NCBI GenBank assembly: GCA_031272775.1
Contig: JAISTB010000031.1
Coordinates: forward strand, 1-48,031
Source of the DNA: Fusobacteriaceae bacterium
Lineage (GTDB): Bacteria > Fusobacteriota > Fusobacteriia > Fusobacteriales > Fusobacteriaceae
DNA length: 48,031 bases
Direction: 5' to 3'
Part shown: in pieces, positions 14,375 to 38,178 of the stretch
Numbering within the stretch: position 1 is the stretch's first letter
Layout: every line of letters starts with the position of its first letter
Program-made: the position numbers and the translations under genes
Notes under the pieces: generated by a model
Databases searched by the model: none
What the model was told of the DNA's origin: nothing
The model's input: the letters and a program-made list of their open reading frames with translations, nothing else

Positions 14375-14471
14375 AGAATACCGCCGTTATTCGGAATGGA
14401 TTTCGAAAAGCCTGTTTTTTCTTTCGCCCGCTATTATCTCATGATACTGTGTCCCAATCATGGCAGGACGC

Positions 14472-20877: not shown

Positions 20878-21727
20878 CGACCGTCGCCTCCGCCTCCGCC
20901 GCGCTCTTCCGCGAAATTCGCATAAAAAGATAGATCGTAATGCCCGTGACGACAATAAGGCCGCCGGAAATGACCGAGGCCAGGGGCCAGTTGCGGGTCG
21001 TCAGCAGATGCTGCGCGATGAGGTTCCCCAGCATGATGCTCTGCGTTCCTCCGACGAGCCTCGGGACCGCGTAGGATCCGAGACTGGGAATAAAAGTAAA
21101 CAAGACGGCCGTAATGACGCCGGCCTTGATATTCGGCAAAAAAACCTTGAAAAAAGCCTGTCCGTTGGTCATGCCGAGATCCCGGGCCGCCTCGATCAAC
21201 GTAAAGTCAAATTTTTCGATTACCGCGTAGAGCGGCAGGATCGCGAAGGGGAGGTCCGTATAAACGGATATCACAATGACGGCCGCCATGTTGTACAACA
21301 GTTGCAAGGGCTCTTTGATGAGCCCGCTTTTGAGGAGAAGACTGTTGACGAGGCCGTTATTCCCGAGGATGGCCACCCAGGAATAAATCCGGATCAAAAA
21401 ATTTGTCCAGAAGGGAATGATAATGAGAAAAAGAAATTCCTGCTTGTGATTGCTCCGGGCGATGAAATAGGCCGAGGGAATCGCGAGAACCACGGTAAAA
21501 AACGTGATGAAAATGGAAATCAGAATCGTCCGGCCCAGCACAATCAAAAAAACGTGGTCCTTGAAGACCGAGAAGGCCTGCAGGGAAAATTCCAGCTCCA
21601 CGCCGCCGTAGAGTCCCTTTTTCAAAAACGCGTACACCAGGACGACGGCCATGGGGATCATAAAAAAGATCACAAGCCAAACCGTCAGCGGCAGCGCGTA
21701 AAATATCCCGTATTTATCTTTATTCAC
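20870..21727 (-). CDS. potB: Spermidine/putrescine ABC transporter permease PotB
   Basis: GTG start overlaps the potA stop. EAARDLGMTNGQAFFKV loop. Confidence 0.85.
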   Translation of the reverse strand: MNKDKYGIFYALPLTVWLVIFFMIPMAVVLVYAFLKKGLYGGVELEFSLQAFSVFKDHVFLIVLGRTILISIFITFFTVVLAIPSAYFIARSNHKQEFLFLIIIPFWTNFLIRIYSWVAILGNNGLVNSLLLKSGLIKEPLQLLYNMAAVIVISVYTDLPFAILPLYAVIEKFDFTLIEAARDLGMTNGQAFFKVFLPNIKAGVITAVLFTFIPSLGSYAVPRLVGGTQSIMLGNLIAQHLLTTRNWPLASVISGGLIVVTGITIYLFMRISRKSAAEAEATVDE

Positions 21728-22847
21728 GGCCCGTCACCTCCACAAGGAAGCCATCGTCGGCGTCCCAGTAGACCCAGGCTTCTTCGTCCCACCATACGAC
21801 GTCTTCGTCTTCCTCGTCAAAATAAATGGCGTGCTGCTTGAAGATCTTGAAGGGCATTTCCTTGTCCCCTTCCATCCAGACGAAGTATTTGCTCTGAAAG
21901 CCTGAGTAAATGACCTCGTGGACGAAGGCCCGGGCCACGTTGAGGATCTTGTCGGTCTGCGGGGGACTCATCTTGGAAAGTTTCAATTTTTCAGGCCGGA
22001 TCGACACCCGGACCCGATCCCCCACCCGGACGGGCTTGTCCATTTCTATGGTGATCTCGCCGAGGGTCTTGTTCTTGAGCCGGGCAAAGCGTTCGTCAAT
22101 GAGGGACACAATTTCCCCCTCAAAGAAATTGTTCTCACCCAAAAAGTCCGCAACGAACGAATCCGAGGGCGCTTCATAGACTTCGGCAGGCGTCCCCACC
22201 TGGAGGACGTTTCCCTCGTTCATGACCGCGATCCGGTCGGAAATCGAAAGGGCCTCCTGCTGGTCGTGAGTGATGAAGATAAACGTGATCCCCACTTCGT
22301 CATGAATATTGTCGATTTCGATCAGGAGATTCTGCCTGAGCTTGGCGTCCAGGGCCGAGAGCGGCTCGTCCAGCAGCAGGACCCCGGGTTTGTTGATCAG
22401 GGCCCGGGCGATGGCGACCCGCTGTTGCTGCCCGCCAGAGAGCTGGTTGGGCTTTTTGTTCACATGCTCGTTGAGGCCGACGAGATCGATGTATTTTCTC
22501 ACTTCCTCATCGATTTCCCTGCGGCCGAGCTTCTTGATCCGCAGGGCGAAAGCGATGTTTTCATAGACCGTCAGGTGTGGAAACAACGCGTATTTTTGAA
22601 AGATCGTATTGACATTGCGCCGGTTGGGCGGCAAACCCAGGATGTTTTCGTTCCCGAGGTAGATGGCCCCCGAGTCGGGCGTGATAAAACCGGCGATCAT
22701 CCGCAAAAGCGTCGTCTTCCCACAGCCCGAAGGGCCCAAAATCGTAAAAAATTCCCCGTCCTCAATCGTCAGGTTGATGTCGTTCAAAACCTTTACCCCG
22801 TCAAAACTCTTGTTCACATGCTCGATTCTGATGTCGTTTTTTCCCAA
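21720..22847 (-). CDS. potA: Spermidine/putrescine ABC transporter ATP-binding protein PotA
   Basis: GPSGCGKTT Walker [17 protein letters not shown]-terminal TOBE-like regulatory domain. TTG start after GAGGAGG. Confidence 0.85.
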
Positions 22848-23076
22848 TTTATCCCCTTTACCTCCTCTGTTGCACGTTTCATAAGATGTGATACTGACTT
22901 ATTATACCATATTTTCCCGTGTTTTTACAGGGAAAAGATGTTGAGACGGGATATTTCAAAAAAATCCGCTTTTGCCATTGAATAATCCCGGAAAATGTTG
23001 TATTATTGTAGCAGAAATTTGAAATCTTTTTTTGTTGTCCCTGTGATGAAGAGAAAAGTAAAAAACGGAGGTCCCT

Positions 23077-26000
23077 ATGAAAAAGTATTTCCTGCTGTTG
23101 ATGCTGATCCTGCTGCTGGCATGCGGAAAAAAAGAGCAGGCGCCCCAAAGCGATACGCCGCCGGCGACAGCCGCCGTACAGACCGTGACGTCCGAAGCCC
23201 CCAAGACCGAAGCCGCGACGACCGCCGATGAAAAGAAAGAAGAACCGAAAGCGGAAACGACGGCGGAAAAGCCTGCCGAGCCCCGGGTCTCGGAAGCGCC
23301 CGCCATTGCGGCAAATCAGGATAAACCGGCCGAAGCCGCGACGACCGCCGTTGCCGCCGAGCCCGCGCCCAGCCCCAAGGGCGAAGACACCACCCCGCGG
23401 GTGGCTTTTATCGGCGGAGACCGGTCCGGAGACGGGGCCTCCGTGGAGATTGTCCTCACGAAGCCTGTCAAAGACGGCTTTGACCCCTCCGCCTACGTCC
23501 GGGTCGTGGACGCCGTCGACGGGACCGCGCTTACGGTCAAGACCGCCGTCTTCAAGGATACGATCAAGCTCATGGGCGGTTTTGAAACGGACAGAGAATA
23601 TACGGTCACGGTCCTTGCCGGAATTCCCGCGGCCGATGAGACGAAGCTGAGCGCGGACGTTACGGAAAACGTAAAATTTTCCGAACGGGAACCGCGGATC
23701 GCCTTTTTGAATGAAGGGATTCTGCTGCCCTCCACGGCGGACCGCTCGATTATCCTCCGGACCATGAACGTCACCAAGGTCGACGTCAAAGTCTGGAAAG
23801 TCTTTGAGAACAATTTTACGCAGTATCTGCACAATTTCCATTTCAAGAGCAACGGCATGAACGGCTACGGCAACAATCTGCTCGCGGATTACAACCTCGC
23901 GCAGGTGGCCGAGGAAATCGCCGTCAAGAGCTTTACGATCAACAATAACAAAAACAAGTGGGTGCAGAGCGCCCTTGATCTGCGCGGTATCATCGACGGC
24001 AAGGGACTGTATCTCTTGAGCGTCTCCTTTCCCCGGGACGGCGTCAGCTATGAGTTTCCCGAGGATTTGCCCGAATGGCGGCGGGACAGCTTCTTTTACC
24101 GGGGGGTCGTCAGCAAGGCCATTCTTTTGACCGACGTGGCCCTGATCGCGCAAAAGGACGGCGGCGGCAAAATTTTCGTGAGCGCCATGGACATCGTGAA
24201 AAACGAGCCCGCGCCGGGCGCCAAAATCAGTCTCGTCAGCGCCACGAACCAACTCCTGGGGGAAAAACTCTCCGACGGGGACGGCAACGTCGTCTTTACC
24301 GACAACACGAAAAACGCCTTCTATGTGGTCGCCGAATATGACGACAAAAAATCCCTGCTGAAGCTAAACGATCCGCTCTCCATGGACGGCTTCAAGGTCG
24401 GGGGCCAGACGGCGACCGAAGGACTCAAGGCCTTCGTCTATACGGAGCGGGGCGTTTACCGGCCCGGCGATCCCATTCACATCGGCATTGTCGCCCGGAA
24501 TGAGAAAAGCGTTCTCCCCGACGACCATCCGGTCAAAGTGACGGTCTACACGCCCACAGGCGCCAAATATATCGAAGACGCCGTGATTCCCTCGGGCAAA
24601 AACGGCTTCTATACCTGGGAATTTTCGACGAAGACCTCGGACAATACGGGCATCTGGAAACTGGTCGCCACGATCGGCAGCCATACGGTCACCAAGGAAA
24701 TCATGGTCGAGACCGTCGTGCCCAACAAAATCCAGAATACGCTGACGGCGCCTGAATCCATTACCGGCGACGCGAAGCTCCTCGACTGGAGCATAGATTC
24801 CAAATACCTCTTCGGCTCTCCCGCGGCGGGACTTGTCGCCGAAGGAGACATCATCATCACCGAAGCGCCGGCGGATTTTGAAAACTATAAAAACTACGCC
24901 TTTTCCGCGCCGGGAACTTATTTTTACGCCACCTATGACAACTTTACGGGATTCCTTGACGAAAACGGACACGTCGATATTCAGACGAACCTCGAAAATA
25001 TCCAGTACCGCTCCCTCAACGTCCACGTACAGCTGGTGGCGCGGGTTCTGGAAGAAAGCGGACGGCCCGTCCGGACGCAAAAAGTCGTCCTGGTGAAAAA
25101 ATTTGACTCCTATGTGGGCATAGAGCGGAACAACCGCTATCTGGGCAATAACGCCCCCGTCAACATCAAAGTCATCACGCCTGCGACCGACGGGGAAAAA
25201 CTCGTCGCGGGCCGCAATTTAGAATATCGCGTTTACTACAACCGCTATTCCTGGTGGTGGGATTACAGCAACTTTGACGACTTCATCCGGAGCATCAAGG
25301 ACGACAAGGAGACGGAACTCGTGGAGACAAAGGACTTCACCTCCACGGAAGATCCCTACGTGATCGGCTTCGTTCCCGAATATGAAGGCGAATACTATGT
25401 GGAAGTCACGGATCTCGATTCCAATCAGGTCACAGGGACGTCCTTCTACGCCTCCGACTGGACGGATCCCGCCAACGTCGTCAAGCTGGACGGGCTCCGG
25501 ATCTCGACGGACAAGGCCAAATACCGCTCCGGGGAAAAGGCCGTCGTGACCTTCGAGGGGACAAAGGGCGCGAAGGCCCTCGTCGCCATTGAACAAAACG
25601 GAAAGATCGTCAAGCGCTTCCTCAAATCCATCGGCGAGGGCGCGGTCAAAGAAGAGATCGACCTCGAAAAATCCATGGCCCCCAATATCTATGTACATGT
25701 GTCCCTCCTGCAGGATTACGCGCGGAAAAACGACCGCTCCCTGCGGCTCTACGGGACAGTCCCGGTCCTCATCGAGGATGAGGACACAAAGCTCAACCTC
25801 TCCCTTGAGGCCCCCGATTCCGTGCGGCCCAACGAGACCTTTACCGTAAAAATCACCAACGACAAAAACAAAAAAGCCGAATACACCGTCGCCGTGGTGG
25901 ACGAAGGGCTTCTGGATCTGACGGCTTTCCAGACCCCGGATCCCTGGACCTTCTTCTATCAGAAAACAGCGTCTCTGCTGCGCCAATACGACAACTACGG

Positions 26001-28224
26001 CAGCATCATGGACAGACCCTGGGGCGACATTCACCAGATCCTCAAGGTGGGCGGCGAAGTCATGGCCATGGCGGAAGCTTCAAGGGCGCGAAAGGCGGAC
26101 CTCGGCTTTGAGGATGAAAACCGCTTCAAGCCCGTAGCCCTGTGGCAGGGCGTCCTTAGTACAAATGAAAAGGGCGAGGGTGAGGTCGCCTTCACGATGC
26201 CAAACTACATGGGCTCCGTCCGGATCATGGTCGTCGCGGCCCAGGGGGCTTCCTACGGCAGCGCCGAAAAGACCATGACCGTCAAGGCCCCCGTGGTCGT
26301 GCTGGAATCTCTCCCGCGGACGCTCAAGGTCGGCGACGAATTTATCTTCCCGGTCAAGGTCTTCGCCCTCGAGGAGAATATCGGCGACATCGAAGTTTAT
26401 TATTCCTTTAACGGCAAGCGCCAGAGCCAGACCGTCAATCTCGAAAAGGGCAAAGACACGACGGTATTCTTCCGGGAGAAAATCGATCCCCGGGCGGGCC
26501 TGAATCAGGTCGCCATCGGCGTCAAAAGCGCCGCCTATGACCACGAGGAGACCGTGGGCATGGCCGTCAACTCCAACGCGCTTCCGATCTATGAGAGTCA
26601 ATATGTGGTGACGACGGACAACACTCCGGCCGCTTTCAGCCAGAAACACGACTATGTGGGCAATACGGTCGCGAGCTACGTGACGATCTCCAATACGCCG
26701 ATCCTCGGCATCGATCAGCGGCTCCGCTGGCTGATCCAGTATCCCTACGGCTGCGTGGAACAGACGACGTCCGCCGCCATGCCGCAGCTTTTCATTGACC
26801 GGCTCATGACCCCGGGCGCCTGGGACAAAAAAGAGGTCCTCAAAAACATCAACGCGGGCGTCAACCGGCTCTGCACGCAGTTCCAGCGCTCTGACGGCGG
26901 CTTTTCCTACTGGCCCGGCGAAAGTTCCGTCGACGACTGGGGAACGGCCTGGGCGGCCACGTTCCTGATCAACGCGCGGAAAATGGGTTATTATGTGCCC
27001 GAAAATTCCTGGAACCGGCTGATCAAATACCTGACGCGGCAAGTCCGCGAGCGGAAAGGCGGCCGTTACGCCTCCACAGACAGAACTTCGGCAAATTACT
27101 ATTTGCAGACGCGGACCTTTACGCTCTATCTGCTGGCGCTGGCAGGAAATCCGCTCCTCAGTGAAATGAACTACACCTGGGCCAATGAAACGGCTGATTT
27201 GAGCCCATTCGCCAAGCTCTATCTCGCCGCGGCCTACAAGCTCGCCGGCGAAGACAATACGGCAAAGGAAATCTTCGCCAAATCCGAAATCAAAGAGACG
27301 CTGGCCAAAACGGACCGATCGACGGACCATTACCGCTACACCTACGGCTCCAACCTCTGCGACATGGGCGTTTATCTCCATCTCTACCACACGATACACG
27401 GCGAGGTGGATCAGAATATGCTCGATGACGTCTTGGGCTTACTGAGATCAGGCGCCTGGTACAACACCCAGGGCACGGCCTGGGCGCTTTTGGCCCTGTC
27501 CGACATCACCGCCAACAACAGCGACAAAGCCCTCAAGGGCACGATCACCATGGACGGCGTCGCGACTTCCTACGAAGGGAACGGACAGACCCGGGTCACG
27601 ATCCCCGAAACGATCCGGGAGATCGTCGTGACCCCCGAAGCCCGAGGCAACAGTTTCATCAGCTACTACTGGGAAGGGACGCCCCTCAACGAGGAGACCG
27701 CCAACATCGTCAAGGGCTTTACGCTGGAGCGTAAGTACTACGACAAAGACGGAAATCCTTTCAATCCGCGGGAAGCGGAGTCCGGAAAAACCTTCTGGCT
27801 CGAGATCCTCGTCAACAGCGACAGCAACAACCGCTATCTCGTCGTGGACAACGTGGCCCTGACACAGATCCTGCCCACGGGCTGGGAGATCGAAAACACG
27901 CGACTGACCGGGGAGCCATACCCCGAGTGGATCCGAAACAAATTGAGCGGCGTCGAAGACTACGCGCGCTATACGGATATCCGCGACGACAGGATCATCT
28001 GGTTCTTCGACTATGATACCTATCGCTACGGCAACAACGGCGTCTACCGCTTCTTCGTCAAGATCAACGCCGTGACCCGGGGCGTCTTCGACTTCCCCGG
28101 CACAAAACTGGAAGCCATGTATGACAACAACTACCGCTCCTACCTCAACGGCTACCCCGTCCGGGTCGTAGACAAAAACATCCCCTTGGATGAAAAAAAT
28201 CCGGACAGCAACACACCACTATGA
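23077..28224 (+). CDS. Bacterial alpha-2-macroglobulin (lipoprotein; thioester-containing protease trap)
   Basis: 1715 aa. Lipobox LLLACGKKE. Thioester motif GCVEQT (YPYGCVEQTTSAA). Typical A2M domain spacing, with a PBP1C gene downstream. Confidence 0.9.
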   Translation: MKKYFLLLMLILLLACGKKEQAPQSDTPPATAAVQTVTSEAPKTEAATTADEKKEEPKAETTAEKPAEPRVSEAPAIAANQDKPAEAATTAVAAEPAPSPKGEDTTPRVAFIGGDRSGDGASVEIVLTKPVKDGFDPSAYVRVVDAVDGTALTVKTAVFKDTIKLMGGFETDREYTVTVLAGIPAADETKLSADVTENVKFSEREPRIAFLNEGILLPSTADRSIILRTMNVTKVDVKVWKVFENNFTQYLHNFHFKSNGMNGYGNNLLADYNLAQVAEEIAVKSFTINNNKNKWVQSALDLRGIIDGKGLYLLSVSFPRDGVSYEFPEDLPEWRRDSFFYRGVVSKAILLTDVALIAQKDGGGKIFVSAMDIVKNEPAPGAKISLVSATNQLLGEKLSDGDGNVVFTDNTKNAFYVVAEYDDKKSLLKLNDPLSMDGFKVGGQTATEGLKAFVYTERGVYRPGDPIHIGIVARNEKSVLPDDHPVKVTVYTPTGAKYIEDAVIPSGKNGFYTWEFSTKTSDNTGIWKLVATIGSHTVTKEIMVETVVPNKIQNTLTAPESITGDAKLLDWSIDSKYLFGSPAAGLVAEGDIIITEAPADFENYKNYAFSAPGTYFYATYDNFTGFLDENGHVDIQTNLENIQYRSLNVHVQLVARVLEESGRPVRTQKVVLVKKFDSYVGIERNNRYLGNNAPVNIKVITPATDGEKLVAGRNLEYRVYYNRYSWWWDYSNFDDFIRSIKDDKETELVETKDFTSTEDPYVIGFVPEYEGEYYVEVTDLDSNQVTGTSFYASDWTDPANVVKLDGLRISTDKAKYRSGEKAVVTFEGTKGAKALVAIEQNGKIVKRFLKSIGEGAVKEEIDLEKSMAPNIYVHVSLLQDYARKNDRSLRLYGTVPVLIEDEDTKLNLSLEAPDSVRPNETFTVKITNDKNKKAEYTVAVVDEGLLDLTAFQTPDPWTFFYQKTASLLRQYDNYGSIMDRPWGDIHQILKVGGEVMAMAEASRARKADLGFEDENRFKPVALWQGVLSTNEKGEGEVAFTMPNYMGSVRIMVVAAQGASYGSAEKTMTVKAPVVVLESLPRTLKVGDEFIFPVKVFALEENIGDIEVYYSFNGKRQSQTVNLEKGKDTTVFFREKIDPRAGLNQVAIGVKSAAYDHEETVGMAVNSNALPIYESQYVVTTDNTPAAFSQKHDYVGNTVASYVTISNTPILGIDQRLRWLIQYPYGCVEQTTSAAMPQLFIDRLMTPGAWDKKEVLKNINAGVNRLCTQFQRSDGGFSYWPGESSVDDWGTAWAATFLINARKMGYYVPENSWNRLIKYLTRQVRERKGGRYASTDRTSANYYLQTRTFTLYLLALAGNPLLSEMNYTWANETADLSPFAKLYLAAAYKLAGEDNTAKEIFAKSEIKETLAKTDRSTDHYRYTYGSNLCDMGVYLHLYHTIHGEVDQNMLDDVLGLLRSGAWYNTQGTAWALLALSDITANNSDKALKGTITMDGVATSYEGNGQTRVTIPETIREIVVTPEARGNSFISYYWEGTPLNEETANIVKGFTLERKYYDKDGNPFNPREAESGKTFWLEILVNSDSNNRYLVVDNVALTQILPTGWEIENTRLTGEPYPEWIRNKLSGVEDYARYTDIRDDRIIWFFDYDTYRYGNNGVYRFFVKINAVTRGVFDFPGTKLEAMYDNNYRSYLNGYPVRVVDKNIPLDEKNPDSNTPL

Positions 28225-28259
28225 ATACAGGATAAACAACGATTACAGGAGTTGAAAAC

Positions 28260-28311
28260 GTGATTGACAATGAAACCCTGATTTGATGAATCATGGTTTC
28301 ACGTCAATCAC
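28260..28311 (+). promoter_or_regulatory. Inverted-repeat operator/promoter element upstream of the SPFH module
   Basis: GTGATTGACAATGAAACC-N17-GGTTTCACGTCAATCAC (17/18 complementary). The left arm contains the perfect -35 hexamer TTGACA. It lies 30 nt upstream of the SPFH start codon. Confidence 0.4.
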
Positions 28312-28340
28312 ATAAATCATAGTCACAGGAGGAATATCGC

Positions 28341-29690
28341 ATGGGATTAATCAGAGCGGCAATAGGGGCAGCCGGCGGCACGCTGGCCGATCAGTGGAAA
28401 GAGTTTTTCTACTGTGAATCCATCAGCAAGGATGTCCTTGTCACAAAAGGGGTAAAGCGGATCAGCGGGCGTTCGTCCAACACAAAGGGCAACGACAACA
28501 TCATTTCCAGCGGCAGCGGCATCGCCGTGGCCGACGGGCAGTGCATGATCATCGTCGAGCAGGGAAAAGTCGTCGAAGTCTGCGCGGAGCCCGGGGAATT
28601 CACGTTCAACGCGTCTACGGAACCCAGCATCTTCGCGGGCGGTCTCAACATGACCAGCATCAAAAACACCTTCGCTACCATCGGGAAGCGCTTCGCCTAC
28701 GGCGGAGACCCCGGCAAGGATCAACGGGTGTACTATTTCAACACGAAAGAAATCCTCGACAACAAATTCGGGACCGCGACGCCGATCCCCTTCCGGGTCG
28801 TGGACGCCAAGATCGGTCTCGACATCGACGTCTCCGTCCGCTGTAACGGCATATTCACATTCAAAATCGTGGATCCGCTGCTGTTTTACACCAACGTCAG
28901 CGGAAATGTGCAAAATGAGTACGTGAAAGAAGAGATTGCCGACACGCTGAAATCCGATATTCTGACGTATCTGGCGCCGGCGTTTTCCGCCATTTCCGAT
29001 ATGGGCATCCGGCCGAACCAACTGGCCGCTCAAAATATCGCGATCCGCGACGTTCTGAAGCAGCAGCTCTCCCCCGAATGGGCGGACCGGCGGGGTCTGG
29101 AAATCGTCAACATTTCCTTCAACTCCGTGACGATCCCCAAAGAAGACGAAGAGCTGATCAAACAGGCCCAGCGGGCGGCCATGCTCCAGAATCCCAACTA
29201 CGCGGCGGCAACGATCGCCGCGGCTCAGAGCGACGCCATGCGGGCGGCCGCGTCCAATCCCAACGGGTCCATGGGGGCCTTTGTGGGCATGGGCATGGCC
29301 CAGGGCGTGGGCGGTATGAACGCCGGAGAATTATTTAAAATGGGCGCGGCGCAAAACGCGGCGTCTCAAGGCGGCGCGGGGGCGCAAGGGTCGGCGGCCG
29401 CAACCGCCGGATGGACCTGTCCCGCCTGCGGCGCCACGGGCAATACCGGAAAATTCTGCATGAATTGCGGAAAGCCCAAACCGGCCCCCGCCGAAGGCTG
29501 GGCCTGTCCCAAGTGCGGAACCGTCAACGAAGGCAATTTCTGCGTCAATTGCGGCGAAAAGCGGCCCGCCGGCGCGCCTTTGTACAAGTGCGACAAATGC
29601 GGCTGGACGCCCCCCGATCCCAAGAACCCGCCCAAATTCTGCCCCGAATGCGGAGATGTGTTCGACGACAGCGACAAGACAAACGGTTAA
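28341..29690 (+). CDS. SPFH/band-7 (flotillin-like, COG4260/YdjI-like) protein with three C-terminal zinc ribbons
   Basis: N-terminus MGLIRAAIGAAGGTLADQWKEFF is characteristic of the YdjI/COG4260 group. The C-terminus carries CPAC..CMNC, CPKC..CVNC and CDKC..CPEC ribbons. Confidence 0.75.
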   Translation: MGLIRAAIGAAGGTLADQWKEFFYCESISKDVLVTKGVKRISGRSSNTKGNDNIISSGSGIAVADGQCMIIVEQGKVVEVCAEPGEFTFNASTEPSIFAGGLNMTSIKNTFATIGKRFAYGGDPGKDQRVYYFNTKEILDNKFGTATPIPFRVVDAKIGLDIDVSVRCNGIFTFKIVDPLLFYTNVSGNVQNEYVKEEIADTLKSDILTYLAPAFSAISDMGIRPNQLAAQNIAIRDVLKQQLSPEWADRRGLEIVNISFNSVTIPKEDEELIKQAQRAAMLQNPNYAAATIAAAQSDAMRAAASNPNGSMGAFVGMGMAQGVGGMNAGELFKMGAAQNAASQGGAGAQGSAAATAGWTCPACGATGNTGKFCMNCGKPKPAPAEGWACPKCGTVNEGNFCVNCGEKRPAGAPLYKCDKCGWTPPDPKNPPKFCPECGDVFDDSDKTNG

Positions 29691-29714
29691 GAATCCCGAT
29701 ACAGAGGTGATGTC

Positions 29715-30794
29715 ATGGGCTCTTTGATGGAATTCAAATGCCCGAACTGCGACGCGTCCATTCATTTCGACAGCGGCGCGCAGAAAATGAAATGCCCCTA
29801 CTGCGGGACGGAACTCGATATCGCTTCGCTCAAAGCCCTGGACGACGTGCTGAAACAGGAAAAGCCCGGGGAGGAAAACTGGGAGAAGGAAGCGGGTTCC
29901 GACTGGCAGCCCGGGGAAAAGGAAGGGATGGTTGTCTATTCCTGCAAGTCCTGCGGCGGGGAAATCCTCGTCGACAAAAACACGGCGGCCACGTCCTGCC
30001 CATTCTGCGGCAACACGGTCATCATGCCGCGGGAACTGGCGGGAGAATTGCGCCCCGACTGGGTCATTCCCTTCAAGTACGACAAAAACGGCGCCAAGGA
30101 GGCCCTGCGTCGGCATATGGCGGGGAAAAAGCTTCTCCCCAAGGTCTTCAAGGACGAGAACCACATCGACGAGATCAAGGGGATCTATGTGCCCTTCTGG
30201 CTCTTCGACTGCACGGCCGACGCCCATATCCGCTATCAGGGCGTGACCTATAAGCGCTACGCCTCCGGCGGGTACAATGTTACGGAACGGCAGGTCTACG
30301 CCATCACCCGGGAGGGAACCCTCGATTTTCAAAACGTCCCCGTGGACGGGTCCAGTCAGATGCCCGACGAACTCATGGAATCCATCGAGCCCTTCGACTT
30401 CGGGGCCGCGGTGGACTTTCAGGCGGCCTATCTGGCGGGCTATCTCGCCAACCGCTATGACGAGGACGCCGAGACCGGCAAGGCCAAGGTCAACAAACGC
30501 ATCGTGGCCAGTACGACCGCTTCCTTTGACGCGTCGGTCACGGGATTTGCCGAGGTCACGACGCAAAACCGGACCATCAACCTCATCCACGGCAGCGTCC
30601 GCTACGCGCTGCTGCCGGTCTGGATGCTCAACACGACCTGGCGGGGCCGGCGTTATACCTTCGTCATGAACGGTCAGAGCGGAAAATTCGCCGGAGATCT
30701 GCCGGTCGATACGGGCGCCTACTGGCGCTGGTTCGGAACGCTCTTCGGCGTCATTGCCGTCGCCGCCTTCGCGGCGGCGAAATTATTCCTGTAG
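29715..30794 (+). CDS. Double zinc-ribbon membrane-anchored protein (YdjG-like)
   Basis: CPNC..CPYC and CKSC..CPFC ribbons at the N-terminus. Single C-terminal TM helix (WFGTLFGVIAVAAFAAAKLFL). Confidence 0.6.
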   Translation: MGSLMEFKCPNCDASIHFDSGAQKMKCPYCGTELDIASLKALDDVLKQEKPGEENWEKEAGSDWQPGEKEGMVVYSCKSCGGEILVDKNTAATSCPFCGNTVIMPRELAGELRPDWVIPFKYDKNGAKEALRRHMAGKKLLPKVFKDENHIDEIKGIYVPFWLFDCTADAHIRYQGVTYKRYASGGYNVTERQVYAITREGTLDFQNVPVDGSSQMPDELMESIEPFDFGAAVDFQAAYLAGYLANRYDEDAETGKAKVNKRIVASTTASFDASVTGFAEVTTQNRTINLIHGSVRYALLPVWMLNTTWRGRRYTFVMNGQSGKFAGDLPVDTGAYWRWFGTLFGVIAVAAFAAAKLFL

Positions 30795-30806
30795 GAGGCG
30801 GAGCAA

Positions 30807-31592
30807 ATGCGAAAACTCAAGATGTGCAAAAAATGTCTTCTTCTCGCGCTGCTGACGCTGCTCTGGACGCTGTGTCTCACGGCCGCCTTACCCAAGGTCG
30901 TCGACGAGGCCGGTCTCCTGAGTTCGCAGGAAGAGCAGCAGCTGGCGCAAATGATAGACAAAGTGATAACAAAGTACAATAAATGTGATGTCGTCGTGGT
31001 CACCGTCAACAATCTGGGCGGCAAGTCGGCCATGGCCTTTGCCGACGACTGGTTTGACTACAAGGGCTACGGCGTGGGGCCGGACAAAAGCGGCGTCCTT
31101 TTCCTCGTCAGCATGGCTGAAAGAGAGTTCTGGATGTCCACGACGGGCTACGGCATCAAGGCCTTCACGGATTGGGGCATCGATCAGATCACGGAAAAAA
31201 TGGTCCCCGACCTCAGCAAGGGCAACTATTATCGGGCCTTTTCGACCTACGTCTCCGAGTGCGACCGCTATCTCGCGGCGGCGGCCAAAGGAAAGCCCGT
31301 CGACAAGGACAACACGTTTATGGCCGGAATCATTTCCCTCGTGGCGGGCCTTCTGGGCGCCTTCGGCGGAACGGCGGGCATGAAGAGCCAGCTCAGGTCC
31401 ATCAAACGGCAAGGCGCCGCCGCCAACTATGTCCAAACCGACAGCCTGAACTTCGCGGCCAAAGACGCCATTTACCTCTTCAGCAACATCACCCGTACGC
31501 CGATCCCCAAAGCAAGCAGCGGAGGCGGAGGCAGCAGCGTCCACACGGGCTCGTCGGGAACGTCCCACGGCGGGCGCGGCGGACGGTTCTGA
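30807..31592 (+). CDS. TPM-domain protein (YdjH-like) with C-terminal TM helix and Gly-rich tail
   Basis: Signal/TM, then PKVVDEAGLLSSQEEQQLAQMIDKV (typical TPM/DUF477 start), TM IISLVAGLLGAFGG, tail SGGGGSSVHTGSSGTSHGGRGGRF. Confidence 0.7.
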   Translation: MRKLKMCKKCLLLALLTLLWTLCLTAALPKVVDEAGLLSSQEEQQLAQMIDKVITKYNKCDVVVVTVNNLGGKSAMAFADDWFDYKGYGVGPDKSGVLFLVSMAEREFWMSTTGYGIKAFTDWGIDQITEKMVPDLSKGNYYRAFSTYVSECDRYLAAAAKGKPVDKDNTFMAGIISLVAGLLGAFGGTAGMKSQLRSIKRQGAAANYVQTDSLNFAAKDAIYLFSNITRTPIPKASSGGGGSSVHTGSSGTSHGGRGGRF

Positions 31593-31599
31593 GAAATTC

Positions 31600-33906
31600 A
31601 TGAAACGCAAAATAAAACTTGTTTTGTATACAATTACGACCGGCGCCCTTTTGGCGACCTGTCTCGCGGGATACGCGGTCTTCCGGATCTATACCGGCTA
31701 CGACGCGGCGGCGCTCCTCGACAGGGTAGAGGCGTCCTACGGCGCGGCGCTCCTGGACCGGGACGACCGCATTCTCTCCGTCGCCCTCGGCGCCGACGAA
31801 CAGTGGCGCGTCAAGAGCGAAGACCCCGTCCCCGAAAACCTGAAGACGGCCGTTTTGACCTACGAGGACAAAAATTTTTACAAACATCCGGGCATAGACG
31901 TCGCGGCCCTGCTCCGGGCCTTCAAAAACAACGTCGCGGGCAGAAGAAAAAGCGGGGCCAGCACGATCACCATGCAGGTCGCCAAGGTGCTCTCGCCCGG
32001 GAAACGGACCTACCGCAACAAAATCCGGGAAATGATCGCGGCCCTGAAGCTGGAACGAAGCCTCTCCAAGGACGAAATCCTCGCCCTCTGGCTGAATAAC
32101 GCCCCCTACGGCGGAAACATCACGGGCTACGCCACGGCGTCCCGCCTGTATTTTGAAAAAAGCCCGGCGGAACTCTCCTGGGGGGAAGCGGCCCTTCTGG
32201 CGGTACTGCCCAATTCCCCGGGACTCATCAATGTGGAGAAAAACCGGGACAGACTCCTCGCCAAGAGAAACGCCCTGTTGTTGCGACTTTCGGAAAAGGG
32301 AGCGCTGCCCCGGGACCAGTACGCGCTGGCCGTCCGGGAACCGCTGCCCCGACAGATCCACCCTTTTCCCCGCCACGCGCCCCATCTCTTGCGGAGGCTT
32401 TCGGGGGAAAGCCGGGAAAAACTCCTTCGCAGTACCATCGACGGCGAACTCCAGCAAAACGTCGAGGCGGTCTGCAAGACCTACGCGGCCTTCATCAGAA
32501 ATGAAGGCGTTGAAAACGTGGCGGTTCTCGTCGTAGAAAACGCGACCCGGGCCGTCCGGGCCTACGCGGGATCTCAGGACTTTCTGGATTTCGACGCTCT
32601 GGGTCAAGTGGACGGCGTCACGGCCAGACGTTCGCCTGGCTCGGTCCTGAAGCCTTTTTTATTCGCCCTCGCCATCGACGCGGGCCTGGTCGCGCCCCAA
32701 TCCCTGGTCCCCGACGTGCCCCTTTATTTTTCGGGCTTCCGGCCGCAAAACGCCAACAAACTCTATAACGGCATGGTGGAAATGCGCCTTGCCCTGATCC
32801 GTTCGCTGAACATCCCCTTTGTCCATCTGCTCGAAGAATACGGATACGAGCGTTTTTATTATTTTTTGAAAAACGTGCTGGGCTTTGCCGAAAGCGACCC
32901 CGACCGCTACGGCCTGTCGCTGATCCTGGGGACAAAGGAAATCTCCATGGAAGACATGGCCGTCCTCTACTCGGGACTGGCGGACCGGGGAAAGTTCAAA
33001 AACCTGCGGTATTTGCGGAACGACGGGAATAAACCGGTCGATCCCGGCAGGCAGCTGATCACGCCGGGGGCCTGCTGGCTCACGCTGCAGACCATGAAGG
33101 CCCTCGTGCGGCCCGGTTTTGAGAATTACTACCGTTGGAAAAACCCCATTTCCTGGAAGACCGGCACGAGCTACGGCAGGCGGGACGGCTGGGCCTGCGG
33201 CGTTACGCCCGAATACACGATTATCTGCTGGGCCGGAAATTTTAGCGGAAAAAGCAGCCCCGACCTCACGGGCGTCGTCTCGGGGGGGCGACTGCTCTTC
33301 AATATTTTCAGTGAGCTGAACCTCAATTACCGCGAGTTTCCGCGGCCGCCGGACCTCGTCGCCATAACGGTCGACGCCCGCACCGGCTACCGGCCGCCCT
33401 GGCCCGGGCTTCCCGCAAAGGAGATCCTCTGGCCCCAAGGGGCCCGGGCCCTCAAGGTCTCGCCCTATTATCGCAAAATTTACGTCAACGCCCAGGGAGA
33501 GGAAATCGACTCCCGGGATCCGGAATTTACCGAGCGCCAGGAGAAAATCATCTTGAATTACCCCCTTGAGGTCGTCAACTACCTGATCCGGGAAAATATC
33601 ACGGCGAGCGGCCTCCAAGATCCGGGCGCAAAAAGCGTCGACAGTCTCCGTATCCTCTATCCCGCCGAGGGAGCGACGATTCTCCTCCCGAGGGACTTTG
33701 ACGGGGACAGGGAGCTCATCGTGAAAATCGCCAATATCAGAGATCAGGACGTCTACTGGTATCTTGACAATACTTTTCTCGGCGTCGACAGAGCCTATGA
33801 AAAACAATTGAGCGTCCCCAACGGCGACCATACGCTGACCGTCATGGGGGAAAACGGGGAAATCCGCAAGGTGAGATTTACCGTAAAAAGAACGGGGGAC
33901 AGATGA
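31600..33906 (+). CDS. pbpC: Penicillin-binding protein 1C (bifunctional glycosyltransferase/transpeptidase)
   Basis: GT51 motifs (TYEDKNFYKHPGID, RKSGASTITMQVAK). SxxK/transpeptidase region. C-terminal PBP1C-specific domain. Classic partner of A2M. Confidence 0.85.
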   Translation: MKRKIKLVLYTITTGALLATCLAGYAVFRIYTGYDAAALLDRVEASYGAALLDRDDRILSVALGADEQWRVKSEDPVPENLKTAVLTYEDKNFYKHPGIDVAALLRAFKNNVAGRRKSGASTITMQVAKVLSPGKRTYRNKIREMIAALKLERSLSKDEILALWLNNAPYGGNITGYATASRLYFEKSPAELSWGEAALLAVLPNSPGLINVEKNRDRLLAKRNALLLRLSEKGALPRDQYALAVREPLPRQIHPFPRHAPHLLRRLSGESREKLLRSTIDGELQQNVEAVCKTYAAFIRNEGVENVAVLVVENATRAVRAYAGSQDFLDFDALGQVDGVTARRSPGSVLKPFLFALAIDAGLVAPQSLVPDVPLYFSGFRPQNANKLYNGMVEMRLALIRSLNIPFVHLLEEYGYERFYYFLKNVLGFAESDPDRYGLSLILGTKEISMEDMAVLYSGLADRGKFKNLRYLRNDGNKPVDPGRQLITPGACWLTLQTMKALVRPGFENYYRWKNPISWKTGTSYGRRDGWACGVTPEYTIICWAGNFSGKSSPDLTGVVSGGRLLFNIFSELNLNYREFPRPPDLVAITVDARTGYRPPWPGLPAKEILWPQGARALKVSPYYRKIYVNAQGEEIDSRDPEFTERQEKIILNYPLEVVNYLIRENITASGLQDPGAKSVDSLRILYPAEGATILLPRDFDGDRELIVKIANIRDQDVYWYLDNTFLGVDRAYEKQLSVPNGDHTLTVMGENGEIRKVRFTVKRTGDR

Positions 33907-35069
33907 AAACCGAATGCTACATCGCGAAAAAATATATCACGGAACGCAAGCGCCAGAGTCTGATTTCCGTCGTCGGCATCGCGCTGGGGGTAGCGGTTTT
34001 GACCGTTTCCATCGCCATCGCCAACGGCCTCAACGACAACCTGATCACGAATATCCTCTCGGTCACGAGCCACGCCTTTATCGGAAATTACGGCAGGATC
34101 GAGGATTACCGCGAGCTTGCGGCGACTATTGAGCAAATCCCCGGCGTCAAGGGGGCCGTTCCCGCCATCGAAACCCAGGGCATCGTCAAACATACGGGGC
34201 CCTACGGCCTCTACGCGGCGGGGGTCCGGATTGAGGGCTATGATCTCGGGTCCGCCGAAAAGGCCATGGACCTCAAAAAACGCATCGTCGAGGGAGAAAT
34301 CCTCCCCGACAAAATCGACGGGATTCTGCTGGGCCGGGAATTGCAGAAAATCACCGGCGCAAAAACCGGCGACACGGTCACGATCATCTCTTCGGAAAAC
34401 CGCGAGATCGATTTTACGCTTACCGGCATTTTCCAGAGCGGTTATTACGACTATGACGTCAACATGGTGATCCTGCCGCTCACCGCCGCCCAGTACCTCA
34501 TGCAAAGCGGCGACTGCACGAACCGGATCAACATCATGCTCAAAGATCCCTACAAAGCGCCGGCAATCGCGGCGGAGGTGGCAGAGGCCACCGGAAAGAA
34601 AGTCGTGACCTGGGGGGAAGTCAACCGGAACCTCCTGCAGGCCCTGTCTCTGGAAAAAACCGTCATGATCCTCGTCTTTTCGCTGATCGTGGTGATCGCG
34701 GGCTTCGTGGTCTGGGTGACTTTGAATAACCTCGTGCGGGAAAAGATCAGGGACATCGGAATCCTCAGGGCCATGGGCTATCCGAGGGGAAGCGTCACAA
34801 AAATCTTCCTCCTGCAGGGGCTGATCTTAGGGATCGCCGGAATTGCAGCGGGTCTCGGGGTTTCCTGGGCCGTGCTCTCCTGGCTCAAACACAACAGTCT
34901 CTCCTTTGTGACCTCGGTCTATTACCTGACCAGAGTGCCCGTCGTGATTTCCGCCCGGGAAGTGCTTCTGATCGCCGCGGCAAATCTCGTCGTGATCCTT
35001 TTTTCGAGCGTCCTTCCCGCCCGGCGGGCCGGAAAGCTCAACACGGTGGAGGCGCTGCGCTATGAGTGA
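33903..35069 (+). CDS. lolC: LolC/LolE-type lipoprotein-release ABC transporter permease (FtsX family)
   Basis: 388 aa, 4 TM helices with a large periplasmic loop. ATGA overlap with the pbpC stop. Confidence 0.75.
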   Translation: MKTECYIAKKYITERKRQSLISVVGIALGVAVLTVSIAIANGLNDNLITNILSVTSHAFIGNYGRIEDYRELAATIEQIPGVKGAVPAIETQGIVKHTGPYGLYAAGVRIEGYDLGSAEKAMDLKKRIVEGEILPDKIDGILLGRELQKITGAKTGDTVTIISSENREIDFTLTGIFQSGYYDYDVNMVILPLTAAQYLMQSGDCTNRINIMLKDPYKAPAIAAEVAEATGKKVVTWGEVNRNLLQALSLEKTVMILVFSLIVVIAGFVVWVTLNNLVREKIRDIGILRAMGYPRGSVTKIFLLQGLILGIAGIAAGLGVSWAVLSWLKHNSLSFVTSVYYLTRVPVVISAREVLLIAAANLVVILFSSVLPARRAGKLNTVEALRYE

Positions 35070-35745
35070 AATTTTGCGACTTGAACATATCCGAAAGGAC
35101 TACCGGACAAAGACCGACCGCTTGCAGATCCTGCGGGATCTGGACCTCAGTGTGGAAAAGGGGGAATGCGTCGCCGTCCTTGGCCGCTCGGGCTCCGGCA
35201 AATCAACGCTTTTGAACGTCATGGGGCTTCTGGACCGGGCCGACGCCGGAAAAATCACCTTAAACGGTAAAGAAATCAGCCGCATGAAAGAAGCGGAAAT
35301 CGACCGGCTCAAAAACCGCTTTATCGGCTTTGTCTTCCAGTTTCACTATCTGCTGCCGGAGTTTACGGCGCTGGAAAACGTCATGCTGCCGGCTCTCGCG
35401 GCCGGAAACGAATCCAAATCCGCAATCGCCGCCCGCGCCGGGGAGATCCTCGCCCGGATGGGGCTGGGGGAGCGCCTCCGGCACAAGCCCGCGCAGCTCT
35501 CGGGCGGGGAAAAGCAACGAGTCGCCATCGCCCGGGCCCTCATCAACAACCCGGACCTGATCCTGGCCGACGAACCCACCGGCAACCTCGACGAAGAGAC
35601 CAGCGAGGGGATTTTTCACCTCTTCCGGGACATCAACCGGGAACTGGGCCGGACGCTTGTGATCGTGACCCATTCGCGGGATCTGGCCGCCCTCGCCGAC
35701 AGACGCTTCAATCTCCGGAAAGGGCTGCTCGAACCCGAGCCCTGA
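35062..35745 (+). CDS. lolD: LolD-type ABC transporter ATP-binding protein
   Basis: [37 protein letters not shown]. Confidence 0.85.
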
Positions 35746-35797
35746 GGCCGGAATTCGGCCATTTCGGGAATGCGCGGGTTTTTTCGTATCATTCCTA

Positions 35798-35825
35798 TTG
35801 CTTTTTCCGATTTTTGGTGTATAAT
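35798..35825 (+). promoter_or_regulatory. Putative sigma70 promoter for hpf (TTGCTT-16-TATAAT with upstream TG)
   Basis: Hexamers read directly from the sequence. Preceded by a GC hairpin plus T-run that could terminate lolD. Confidence 0.35.
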
Positions 35826-35892
35826 TATACTAAGCGGTACGATGTCTTGCATGGGTGAGACGGCGTATCCAACCAAAAAAAGGGGTGATGGT

Positions 35893-36456
35893 ATGAAATT
35901 ATCCATTTACGGCAAAGGACTCACGGTTACGGAAGCAATCAAAAAGTACGTGGAGACAAAAATCGGAAGGGTGGAAAAATTCCATGACGGCGTCATTTCC
36001 CTCGATGTGTACCTGAGCGCGAAAAAAGTCAAAACAGGGGATTATGTCAAGGTGGACGCCCTCGCTTACCTCGAGGGGACCACGGTCAAGTGCACGAAGG
36101 AAGACAACGACCTCTACGCGGCCATTGACGTGATCTCCGACATGTTGGAACGTCAGCTCCGGAAAAAGAAAGAAAAATCCCTCAAGGCCAATCACAACAA
36201 GGAAAAACTCACCAAACATCTGCATTATTACACGATCGCGCAGCAGTCGTCCGATGAGCGCGAGGAGATCCACGGGCCCGATGAGAAAAACGTCGTCAGC
36301 GTCCTGCTGCCGCCGAAGCCCATGGCCGTAAACGAGGCCATTTTGCAACTTGACGCGCTGGATCGCGTGTTTTACGCCTTCGTCAACGTCCGCACGGGCC
36401 GCATGAATGTCGTTTACAAGCGGAAAGACGGCGATTACGGTTATATTGAATCCTAA
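35893..36456 (+). CDS. hpf: Ribosome hibernation-promoting factor, long form (HPF/RaiA)
   Basis: True start MKLSIYGKGLTVTEAIKKYVE after an AAAAGGGG RBS. The ORF-track N-terminal 41 aa are discarded. Confidence 0.85.
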   Translation: MKLSIYGKGLTVTEAIKKYVETKIGRVEKFHDGVISLDVYLSAKKVKTGDYVKVDALAYLEGTTVKCTKEDNDLYAAIDVISDMLERQLRKKKEKSLKANHNKEKLTKHLHYYTIAQQSSDEREEIHGPDEKNVVSVLLPPKPMAVNEAILQLDALDRVFYAFVNVRTGRMNVVYKRKDGDYGYIES

Positions 36457-36542: not shown

Positions 36543-37988
36543 ATGAGCATCGCGTTATATTTTCTGCGCGAATACATCTTATATATCAACGTCCTGTTTA
36601 TCCTGATCATTATCCTGATCGAGAAGCGAAACCCGCTTTACACGCTGTTTTGGATAATGATCCTCATTCTTGCCCCCTACTTCGGTTTCGTACTCTACCT
36701 CTTTCTGGGCTTGAAATTTCAAAAGCGGCGCAGGGCCGAAAAATACTACAAATGGAAGTTTTCCCACAGCCGGGATATCATCGGCGCCGCCGATCGGGCC
36801 GACCTCAACAAATGGCGTCAGCTCATTTCCTATCTCGACATCTCGTCCAAGAGCAAACTCACGACCAGCAACGCCGTGGAGATTTTTACTTTGGGCCGGA
36901 AATTTTTCGACCGCATGAAGGCCGATATCGAAAACGCGCAAAAATCCGTTAACCTGGAATATTATCTGTTCCGTTACGACGGTCTGGGCCGGGAAATGGC
37001 CGAGCTTTTGATCCGCAAAGTCAAGTCCGGCGTCAATGTCAAGATCATTATCGACGGCGCCAGCAGCGTGGACAAGTCCATGCTCAAGAGCCTGTCCGAA
37101 GCGGGTTGTCAGGTCAGACGCTTTTTCCCCTGGCATTTCCTCTTTCTCAAGATCGCGAGCCTGCGGGTCAATTACCGGGATCACCGGAAGTTGACCATCA
37201 TCGACGACAAGATCGGCTATATCGGCGGCTTCAATATCGGCGACGAGTACCTCGGCAAGGGGGAACTCGGCAACTGGCGCGATACTGCGGTCAGAATCCA
37301 CGGCGACTGCGTGCTGGAACTGCAGAAGGAATTTTATTTTTCCTGGGGCATCGTCAATGACAAGGACGACTTCGATCTGCTGGAGCTCCCCTACCGGACC
37401 GACAGCCGGGACGTACTGTCGCCTGAGCAGCTTGTGGACGCGACCTACATGCAGGTCGTGAGCTCGGGGCCCAATTATCAGTACCGGACCATGCGGGACA
37501 ATTTCCTGAAGATCATCCTCGAAGCCCAGCGCTATATCTATGTGCAAACGCCCTATTTCGTCCCCGACGAGATTATCCTCGAGGCGCTGAAAGTGGCGGC
37601 CACTTCCGGCGTCAAGATCAAGATCATGATCCCCGAAAAATGCGACCACATCTTTATGAAATGGGTCAACCAGTATTTCGCCGGGGAGCTCATCGATCTG
37701 GGCGTCAAGATTTACCGCTATCGGAACGGCTTTCTCCATTCCAAGCTCGTCCTTGCCGACGACGAAGTCGCCAGCGTCGGGAGCGCCAATTTCGACTACA
37801 GGAGCCTGTATCAGAACTTCGAGATCAACGTGAATATCTACGACACGGCCATGGTCAAGGAATTCGCGCGGATTTTCCGGGATGACGCCCGGCTCTCGGA
37901 CCAGATTTTCACCAAGCAGTTTAAAAACAGAGGAATTCTGGCCAAATGCGCCGAAGCGGTCTTCAGACTTTTAGCGCCCATTTTATGA
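36543..37988 (+). CDS. cls: Cardiolipin synthase (PLD superfamily, two HKD motifs)
   Basis: Two N-terminal TM helices. HKD motifs YRDHRKLTIIDD and FLHSKLVLADDEVASVGSANFD. Confidence 0.85.
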   Translation: MSIALYFLREYILYINVLFILIIILIEKRNPLYTLFWIMILILAPYFGFVLYLFLGLKFQKRRRAEKYYKWKFSHSRDIIGAADRADLNKWRQLISYLDISSKSKLTTSNAVEIFTLGRKFFDRMKADIENAQKSVNLEYYLFRYDGLGREMAELLIRKVKSGVNVKIIIDGASSVDKSMLKSLSEAGCQVRRFFPWHFLFLKIASLRVNYRDHRKLTIIDDKIGYIGGFNIGDEYLGKGELGNWRDTAVRIHGDCVLELQKEFYFSWGIVNDKDDFDLLELPYRTDSRDVLSPEQLVDATYMQVVSSGPNYQYRTMRDNFLKIILEAQRYIYVQTPYFVPDEIILEALKVAATSGVKIKIMIPEKCDHIFMKWVNQYFAGELIDLGVKIYRYRNGFLHSKLVLADDEVASVGSANFDYRSLYQNFEINVNIYDTAMVKEFARIFRDDARLSDQIFTKQFKNRGILAKCAEAVFRLLAPIL

Positions 37989-38046
37989 GGTTTTGCAATG
38001 GATCAGGAAGAATAATTTTGATTTTTCCCTGAAAATTTGCTATAAT

Positions 38047-38123: not shown

Positions 38124-38178
38124 GGGGTCGCCATTTCTTTATCCGCAATTTTTGACTTTACCCTATGAGGAGTGAGCG

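Follow-up and report, generated by a model that had tools for sequence, protein, structure and literature searches.

The interrupted pair and its explanation

How did three genes of a membrane-scaffold type known from monoderm bacteria come to stand between the genes for a bacterial alpha-2-macroglobulin (A2M) and for PBP1C in a diderm host? The locus lies on a 48,031-nt contig from a metagenome-assembled genome (MAG) of a Fusobacteriaceae bacterium; this whole stretch of DNA is called the window here. The three genes, together termed the cassette, encode an SPFH protein, a zinc-ribbon protein (ZnR) and a TPM-domain protein. The cassette is probably an SPFH scaffold of the YdjI/YdjG/YdjH type and of Bacillota origin, acquired in a single horizontal event, with a Ruminococcus-like Clostridium as donor and the A2M–pbpC spacer as target. 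The recipient would have been the ancestor of a small Fusobacteriaceae clade of high guanine-plus-cytosine (GC) content, represented by the window and a second high-GC MAG (L006). The landing site would have been the short spacer between A2M and pbpC, downstream of the A2M hairpin and directly upstream of pbpC. The preliminary description of this locus missed its main point, the acquisition of the cassette across phyla from Clostridia.

The YdjI/YdjG/YdjH-type SPFH module as such is known; what may be new is its context, namely a diderm host, a cross-phylum acquisition, a position inside A2M–pbpC and direct contact with pbpC–lolCD. No description of such a cassette within the A2M–pbpC pair of a diderm was found in the literature.

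The locus in related Fusobacteriaceae

A scan with the window PBP1C, one genome per species, returned eight loci, six of them with A2M upstream of pbpC, and three more look-ups of the next-best PBP1C homologues added four loci (recovered loci carry L-numbers; L001 is a JGI metagenome contig). In eight cassette-free relatives (L003, L004, L005, L007, L008, L097, L098/L099 and L100), whose PBP1C is 44–63% identical to that of the window and whose GC is 27–32%, A2M directly adjoins pbpC across a hairpin-bearing spacer of 64–184 nt. The A2M upstream of pbpC in L003–L008 is 41–66% identical to the window protein. The pair had been described as interrupted by three genes, and its adjacency in all eight cassette-free relatives bears this out. 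A cassette at A2M–pbpC was found only in the window, in L001 (99% identical) and in L006 (GC 52%, PBP1C 71% identical); the next-nearest relative, L097 (PBP1C 63% identical), lacks it. Across the recovered loci, the insertion is not the common arrangement and is very unlikely to be the ancestral one.

A lolC-like gene follows pbpC in six of the eight cassette-free relatives (L003, L004, L007, L097, L098 and L100). A lolD-like gene comes next in L003, L004, L007, L098 and L100, the L097 contig ending before its next gene. The hpf gene then follows in L003, L004, L098 and L100, and in L006 one extra gene lies between. Because the A2M–pbpC–lolCD–hpf order occurs in cassette-free relatives, the string is inherited Fusobacteriaceae synteny, and hpf marks the end of the conserved block. 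The lolC and lolD genes had been counted as part of a special supercluster; pbpC–lolC–lolD(–hpf) is ordinary synteny that is present without the cassette.

The cassette carriers also stand out in base composition. GC is 0.54 in the window, 0.52 in L006 and 0.57 in L001 vs 0.24–0.32 in L003–L005, L007–L009 and L097–L100; at third codon positions the window reaches about 0.76. Such a shift between the cassette-bearing clade (about 52–57%) and the other recovered Fusobacteriaceae/Fusobacteria loci is unusually large within a family.

Clostridial affinity of the cassette

An exact look-up of the window SPFH protein returned no record, and a 99% identical relative was used instead. The database matches of SPFH start at this 99% and continue at 66–67%, and every named one is Clostridial (Ruminococcus, Faecousia, Eubacterium, Clostridiales); overall, SPFH is 62–73% identical to its Clostridial homologues. 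ZnR shows the same match pattern, with 55–58% identity to Clostridial proteins. Ruminococcus sp. Marseille-P6503 (Oscillospiraceae; UWPB01000002.1) has SPFH–ZnR–TPM in the same order, with similar lengths and among unrelated neighbours; its three proteins are 66, 55 and 41% identical to those of the window, respectively.

A metagenome scan brought in 80 gut loci with SPFH at 58–67% identity, and most of those with enough sequence keep the SPFH–ZnR–TPM order. A2M or PBP1C lies within 10 kb in none of the 80, and A2M, PBP1C and Lol-like neighbours are absent beside the Ruminococcus and Enterococcus trios. One homologue adjoins the spoIIIA sporulation operon. The Enterococcus trio (Enterococcus gallinarum, NZ_CP116511.1) is distant and has the same order; its SPFH, ZnR and TPM proteins are 31, 28 and 27% identical to those of the window, with nearly full-length alignments for ZnR and TPM (ZnR against the middle gene: 28% over full length, E = 5e-60).

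A neighbour-joining tree of SPFH (200 bootstraps) was rooted on the proteins of Enterococcus and Monoglobus, and an unrooted version was also made. In the rooted tree, the window and L006 group with Ruminococcus sp. Marseille-P6503 and L011 at 97% bootstrap. Clostridia are monophyletic to the exclusion of the window and L006 in 0.5% of bootstrap replicates. A single transfer is indicated because SPFH nests in Clostridia and the cassette is absent from eight related A2M–pbpC loci.

Clostridial cassettes vary in their accessory genes. Many of them (L020–L028, L031, L035, L037, L046, L047, L055, L061, L068, L071, L083 and L087) have extra genes, 1.6–4.3 kb, between SPFH and ZnR; the inserted genes include DUF3592-like, Zn_ribbon_3, DUF4428 plus double-zinc-ribbon and an unannotated 250-residue Cys-rich protein. 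Upstream of the cassette in about 20 Clostridial loci there often stand genes for a LuxR-type response regulator, a histidine kinase and a 7TM sensor-like protein, and this gene order suggests two-component control of the cassette in the donor lineage. The window has neither the extra zinc-ribbon genes nor the two-component genes. Some ZnR/SPFH homologues contain internal tandem duplications: L091 7889–9346 (P0123, 485 residues), L093 1624–3219 (P0122, 531 residues) and L092 2392–4071 (P0003, 559 residues). The overlapping tblastn segments that result inflate bit scores without closer kinship.

A cardiolipin synthase gene (PLDc_N plus two PLDc_2) lies at 36543–37988 (+) in the window, 0.8 kb past lolD–hpf. 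Cardiolipin synthase is also encoded right after the cassette in Ruminococcus L002 (13549–15135) and in L011 (about 13671–15056), and about 6 kb upstream of the L094 cassette gene (283–1860, − strand). Co-transfer of this gene with the cassette was considered and rejected: the window enzyme is 27% identical to the Clostridial ones, and the gene is not in the fetched Fusobacterial flanks.

Age, selection and integration

GC at third codon positions (GC3), nonsynonymous divergence (dN) and synonymous divergence (dS) were taken gene by gene from the comparison of the window with L006, in which all dS values are near saturation. SPFH (GC3 0.76, dN 0.048, dS 0.85, 91% identical; dN/dS about 0.056) and ZnR (GC3 0.81, dN 0.083, dS 1.23, 87.5% identical) are far more conserved than the flanking host genes (GC3 0.75–0.77, dN 0.16–0.25, dS 1.3–1.9, 66–78% identical), with dN/dS near 0.06. 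TPM (GC3 0.78, dN 0.275, dS saturated, 65% identical) matches the flanks in rate of divergence. The cassette has long been resident, its codon GC now being host-like (GC3 0.76–0.81), and purifying selection on SPFH and ZnR is strong. Of the three proteins, TPM evolves fastest, in the window/L006 comparison as well as in Clostridial pairs; adaptation to the periplasm as the reason for its fast divergence was rejected, TPM being fastest in Clostridia too.

The A2M–SPFH spacer holds a hairpin after A2M (−28.6 kcal/mol, z = −3.5, 0/200 shuffles folding as well). In L001 this hairpin carries one compensatory change, T-A to G-C; L006 lacks it and has TTGAAA-16-TATAAT at the same position. No Rfam family matches the hairpin, it has no second copy in the window, and a sigma-70-type consensus scan found no promoter in the window spacer.

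At the other end of the cassette, the gap between TPM and pbpC is 7 nt in the window and 3 nt in L006. In the cassette carriers, pbpC has lost the spacer and hairpin that part it from A2M in relatives. Because of the tight spacing and the overlaps, pbpC and the overlapping lol-like genes most likely share a transcript with the cassette.

The insertion has neither repeats nor integrase genes at its flanks, the only homologues on plasmids are distant (at most 39% identity), and a scan of IMG/VR gave one partial match (L094); a mobile-element origin is unsupported. L094 itself (IMG/VR UViG 3300008132_000231) is an 8.4-kb contig that ends in an SPFH gene, the first 130 residues of which are 82% identical to the window protein. 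A reverse transcriptase, a CHAP-domain protein and the cardiolipin synthase mentioned above are encoded on it too, with no evident phage structural genes; judged by this gene content, its viral label is doubtful.

Gene content and domain architecture

Seven tightly packed open reading frames (ORFs) on the + strand fill positions 23077–35745 of the window. Their coordinates and domains had been proposed from the letters and ORFs, and profile searches against Pfam and NCBIfam, with motif and hydropathy checks, confirm them, the Lol names standing only as Lol-like (Table 1).

Table 1. Genes and spacer of the A2M–cassette–pbpC string and the hpf gene that follows it (window positions; aa, amino acids; RBS, ribosome-binding site)
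Feature	Position	Strand	Length	Matches and signals
Type I bacterial alpha-2-macroglobulin lipoprotein (assigned by motifs)	23077–28224	+	1715 aa	Nine A2M/MG/thioester Pfam families
A2M–SPFH spacer	28225–28340	+	116 nt	Hairpin 28260–28311; GGAGG RBS before SPFH ATG
Soluble SPFH protein, Band_7_1 / YdjI type	28341–29690	+	449 aa	PF13421 70.8 bits (cut-off 24); zinc-ribbon matches
YdjG-type tail-anchored ZnR protein	29715–30794	+	359 aa	Pfam: zinc-ribbon families only
YdjH-type TPM protein	30807–31592	+	261 aa	TPM_phosphatase PF04536, 113.6 bits
PBP1C	31600–33906	+	768 aa	TIGR02073 691.5 bits (cut-off 494.2); Transgly, Transpeptidase, BiPBP_C
LolC/E-like FtsX/MacB-type permease	33903–35069	+	388 aa	FtsX and MacB_PCD; lolCE 233 bits (cut-off 362)
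LolD-like ABC ATPase	35062–35745	+	227 aa	ABC_tran; LolD 270 bits (cut-off 308)
Long HPF, ribosome hibernation factor	35770–36456	+	228 aa	Ribosomal_S30AE and its C-terminal domain

The A2M protein has MG domains, a bait region, the lipobox LLAC (LLAC|G) and a thioester motif, CVEQ, at residue 1226. By its lipobox and CVEQ motif it classes as type I, the form tied to pbpC in the literature (PMC5764988).

Among the cassette proteins, SPFH has six CxxC motifs that make up three C-terminal zinc ribbons (residues 360–437) after a low-complexity linker, and it has no hydrophobic segment. No solved structure matched it in a sequence search. ZnR has four CxxC motifs, i.e. two N-terminal zinc ribbons, and a single C-terminal hydrophobic helix (339–359). 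Its AlphaFold2 (AF2) model has a mean predicted local distance difference test score (pLDDT) of 66.6, with about 75–89 over much of the central alpha/beta domain. The TPM protein has hydrophobic segments at 6–32 (N-terminal signal/anchor) and 169–192 and a Gly/Ser-rich tail; its TPM domain matches PDB 7tbr and 2kw7 by sequence. By prediction, the TPM domain lies outside the cytoplasm (in the periplasm of this host) and the Gly/Ser-rich tail inside it.

PBP1C carries the motifs EDKNF and SVLK. NCBI annotation starts it eight codons later (760 vs 768 residues), which widens the TPM–pbpC gap from 7 to 31 nt; the L006 PBP1C (767 residues) favours the longer start, i.e. inclusion of window positions 31600–31623. 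The LolC and LolD names are the best full-length family matches and fall below the curated cut-offs, for which reason the two genes are read as Lol-like.

Along A2M–SPFH–ZnR–TPM–pbpC the gaps are 116, 24, 12 and 7 nt, so that A2M and pbpC stand 3375 nt apart with three genes within. The pbpC stop overlaps the lolC-like start by 4 nt (ATGA), and a lolD-like gene follows, as had been described; both this overlap and the 8-nt overlap of the lolC-like and lolD-like genes were read directly in the sequence.

Comparison with known systems

The closest characterised counterparts of the cassette proteins are those of B. subtilis. YdjI consists of a band-7 domain and a C-terminal zinc ribbon; YdjG of two zinc ribbons, an uncharacterised domain and a transmembrane helix; YdjH of a TPM domain and a low-complexity tail (Ravi et al. 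2024, PMC11237479). B. subtilis YdjI is soluble, and its membrane localisation requires YdjG and YdjH (Scholz et al. 2021, PMC8581546). YdjH has YdjI and PspA as interaction partners, the loss of ydjG or ydjH leads to mislocalised peptidoglycan synthesis under alkali shock, and the published role of these cassette relatives is in the membrane-stress response (PMC8581546).

The B. subtilis pspA–ydjG–ydjH–ydjI operon and the window share the same three architectures in one tight cluster, and the equation of the two domain sets in the preliminary description agrees with the published architectures (PMC11237479, PMC8581546). The correspondence holds at the level of family and architecture, and the differences are several. 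The order is SPFH–ZnR–TPM in the window and ZnR–TPM–SPFH in B. subtilis; SPFH has three zinc ribbons, whereas YdjI has one. The middle domain of YdjG is YpeB-related with an NTF2-like fold, to which the alpha/beta middle domain of the window ZnR (AF2 model) may or may not correspond. The B. subtilis operon is sigma-W dependent. Unlike in B. subtilis, the window host is a diderm, and the TPM domain would face the periplasm. The B. subtilis operon includes pspA; the window cluster does not, and a profile search for PspA_IM30 matched none of the approximately 38 ORFs on the 48-kb contig, in keeping with the preliminary description.

The annotated Clostridial and Enterococcus trios share with the window the gene order, similar lengths, full-length homology of all three proteins and the lack of an adjacent pspA; unlike the window, they have no A2M, PBP1C or Lol-like neighbours. 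No pspA adjoins the trio in the 80 Clostridial metagenome loci, in Ruminococcus or in Enterococcus. Neighbour clustering with Pfam found no PspA among the 25 of 101 neighbour families listed for the Clostridial loci, and a weak check, consisting of a composition screen and an approximate E. coli PspA query, found no PspA-like ORF near 93 related loci. The absence of pspA had been taken as special to the locus. Because Clostridial and Enterococcus trios share the gene order and lack an adjacent pspA, the PspA-free trio is, by gene order, the common form in gut Bacillota and no peculiarity of the window locus; PspA-free YdjI/G/H-like trios are widespread there.

For the host genes, the comparison is with yfhM–pbpC of E. 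coli and Salmonella (reviewed in PMC5764988), in which a CxEQ A2M lipoprotein and PBP1C are encoded on the same strand and in the same order as in the window. The enterobacterial pair stands side by side; the window pair is parted by 3.4 kb of foreign genes, with pbpC abutting the TPM gene. The Fusobacteriaceae A2M–pbpC pair, unlike that of E. coli and Salmonella, is then followed by lolC-like, lolD-like and hpf.

Possible action of the cassette

Following the model of B. subtilis YdjGHI, the TPM protein and the tail-anchored ZnR protein would form an inner-membrane anchor, which would recruit the soluble SPFH protein. SPFH would then oligomerise under the membrane and organise or stabilise stressed membrane patches, perhaps by itself, perhaps together with a PspA/ESCRT-III-type protein whose gene lies elsewhere in the genome. 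A role as an inner-membrane SPFH scaffold is likely on this analogy.

Several points weigh against transfer of an intact, co-transcribed scaffold cassette. The dS of SPFH is below that of the flanks (0.85 vs 1.3–1.9), and this could reflect a later replacement and not just constraint. The neighbour-joining trees are built, a few named genomes apart, from metagenome sequences that carry no taxonomic names, and the donor they point to is to be read with that in mind. At the junctions, a promoter/terminator consensus scan found no decisive site, and transcription coming from A2M could stop or be attenuated at the A2M–SPFH hairpin. The function proposed for a PspA-free, SPFH-first cassette is an analogy, and the link to B. 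subtilis YdjG/H/I is drawn through Pfam families, published architecture and the homology of the Enterococcus trio.

Alternative explanations

The string had been read in the preliminary description as an envelope-integrity supercluster, in which cooperation with A2M, PBP1C and the Lol-like transporter is what retains the cassette at this site; PBP1C or A2M might, for example, be brought to damaged parts of the envelope by the SPFH scaffold or the periplasmic TPM domain. Such functional co-option is unlikely. In its favour, 7 nt (window) or 3 nt (L006) part the TPM stop from the pbpC start, leaving pbpC without a spacer of its own; two genomes retain the arrangement although their flanking proteins are just 66–78% identical; the peptidoglycan phenotype of the B. 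subtilis ydjG and ydjH deletions under alkali shock (PMC8581546) would fit; and all products are envelope proteins. However, there was a single insertion event, and persistence in one clade is inheritance. The cassette is found near A2M or PBP1C in 0/80 metagenome loci and in neither Ruminococcus nor Enterococcus, it occurs in 0/8 related A2M–pbpC pairs, the lolCD and hpf genes were inherited and not recruited, and intergenic DNA behind a hairpin tolerates insertions readily. One insertion in one small clade gives no statistical support, and the supercluster is not established.

A more specific form of this idea is that the monoderm cassette has been rewired, within an A2M–pbpC–lolCD operon, into a PspA-independent device spanning the inner membrane, in which the cytoplasmic SPFH/ZnR scaffold senses or stabilises damaged inner membrane and the periplasmic TPM domain positions PBP1C and possibly A2M for wall repair on the spot. 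This proposal is quite improbable; if true, it would be the first physical link of an SPFH scaffold to the A2M/PBP1C periplasmic defence pair.

An anti-lysis device had also been suggested; the anti-lysis or anti-phage idea finds no support in PADLOC, and an anti-phage or abortive-infection module that landed here by chance is very unlikely. In its favour, the cassette was horizontally transferred, its zinc-ribbon-rich accessory genes vary among Clostridial loci, one relative lies on the viral-labelled IMG/VR contig L094 with a reverse transcriptase nearby, and the far end of the window encodes a HepT toxin and part of an HsdM. PADLOC-DB 2.0, however, gave no family match for SPFH or TPM, and for ZnR only weak zinc-ribbon matches (E ≥ 1e-4) with no full domain. 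The cassette has housekeeping neighbours in Ruminococcus, in Enterococcus and in the spore-former locus, purifying selection on it is strong and uniform, and the published function of its relatives is a membrane-stress response (PMC8581546).

Slightly less credible still is an ancestral arrangement, in which the cassette originally belonged to the Fusobacteriaceae A2M–pbpC locus and was lost elsewhere. Its host-like GC3 and the lack of mobile-element remains at its flanks would be expected of such a resident. Vertical descent would nevertheless require that at least eight relatives, among them the next-nearest, L097 (63% PBP1C identity), had each lost the cassette cleanly and precisely, and SPFH nests within Clostridia at 97% bootstrap; because of this absence and nesting, vertical inheritance with repeated precise loss is much less parsimonious than transfer. 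The identities of SPFH, 62–73% to Clostridial proteins and 31% to Enterococcus, are the reverse of vertical descent across phyla.

An assembly or binning artefact, in which Clostridial DNA was misjoined into a Fusobacterial contig, might be suspected from the MAG source and from the Clostridial identity of the nearest outside relatives of the cassette, but it is excluded for practical purposes because three independent assemblies (window, L001 and L006, the last a different organism with 65–91% identity at the protein level) share the same junctions and the codon GC of the cassette equals that of the host, with no breaks and with tightly packed reading frames.

Significance of the locus

With the cassette read as a transferred Clostridial scaffold, the locus is a natural experiment, in which strong selection has maintained a monoderm scaffold module in a diderm. 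There the cassette is physically fused to an envelope-repair gene string, with its TPM domain predicted to lie on the periplasmic side. Both the role of the A2M/PBP1C pair and the PspA-free action of SPFH/TPM cassettes are poorly understood. Should the proteins prove to cooperate, the locus would open a way into both problems; otherwise it stands as a well-documented transfer across phyla. It offers a clean transfer story and a possible experimental entry point, not a new mechanism. Any working partnership of the acquired genes with A2M and PBP1C beside them is unproven, there being a single event to go by.

Other features of the contig

The long + strand string ends after the cardiolipin synthase gene, where a tRNA (38057–38130) is directly preceded by a promoter-like site close to consensus (TTGATT-17-TATAAT with TG upstream; within 38018–38130, + strand).

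Four ORFs of the window have no Pfam match: 2216–5740 (−), 5920–6915 (+), 20834–21841 (+) and 21918–22985 (+), with 1174, 331, 335 and 355 residues, respectively. The last two lie directly upstream of A2M and were not found upstream of A2M in L001–L090.

A low-GC patch (GC 0.40 in 19001–20000) coincides with a 352-residue ORF at 18959–20017 (−) that has a C-terminal DUF4325 (STAS-like) domain and a very weak PADLOC match to SoFic (E = 0.008). The patch may be a small foreign island.

The contig start (1–2100, GC 0.40–0.44) holds an HsdM N-terminal fragment and a HepT-like toxin ORF (189–500 and 1227–1562, both −) and a tRNA at 2032–2105 (−). It looks like the edge of a restriction-modification/toxin-antitoxin island integrated beside a tRNA.

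Finally, a second MacB-type system, composed of an outer-membrane efflux protein, an HlyD-family adaptor and an FtsX/MacB_PCD permease, is encoded at 10042–14374 (−), so that the lol-like pair beside pbpC is not the sole FtsX-type transporter on the contig.

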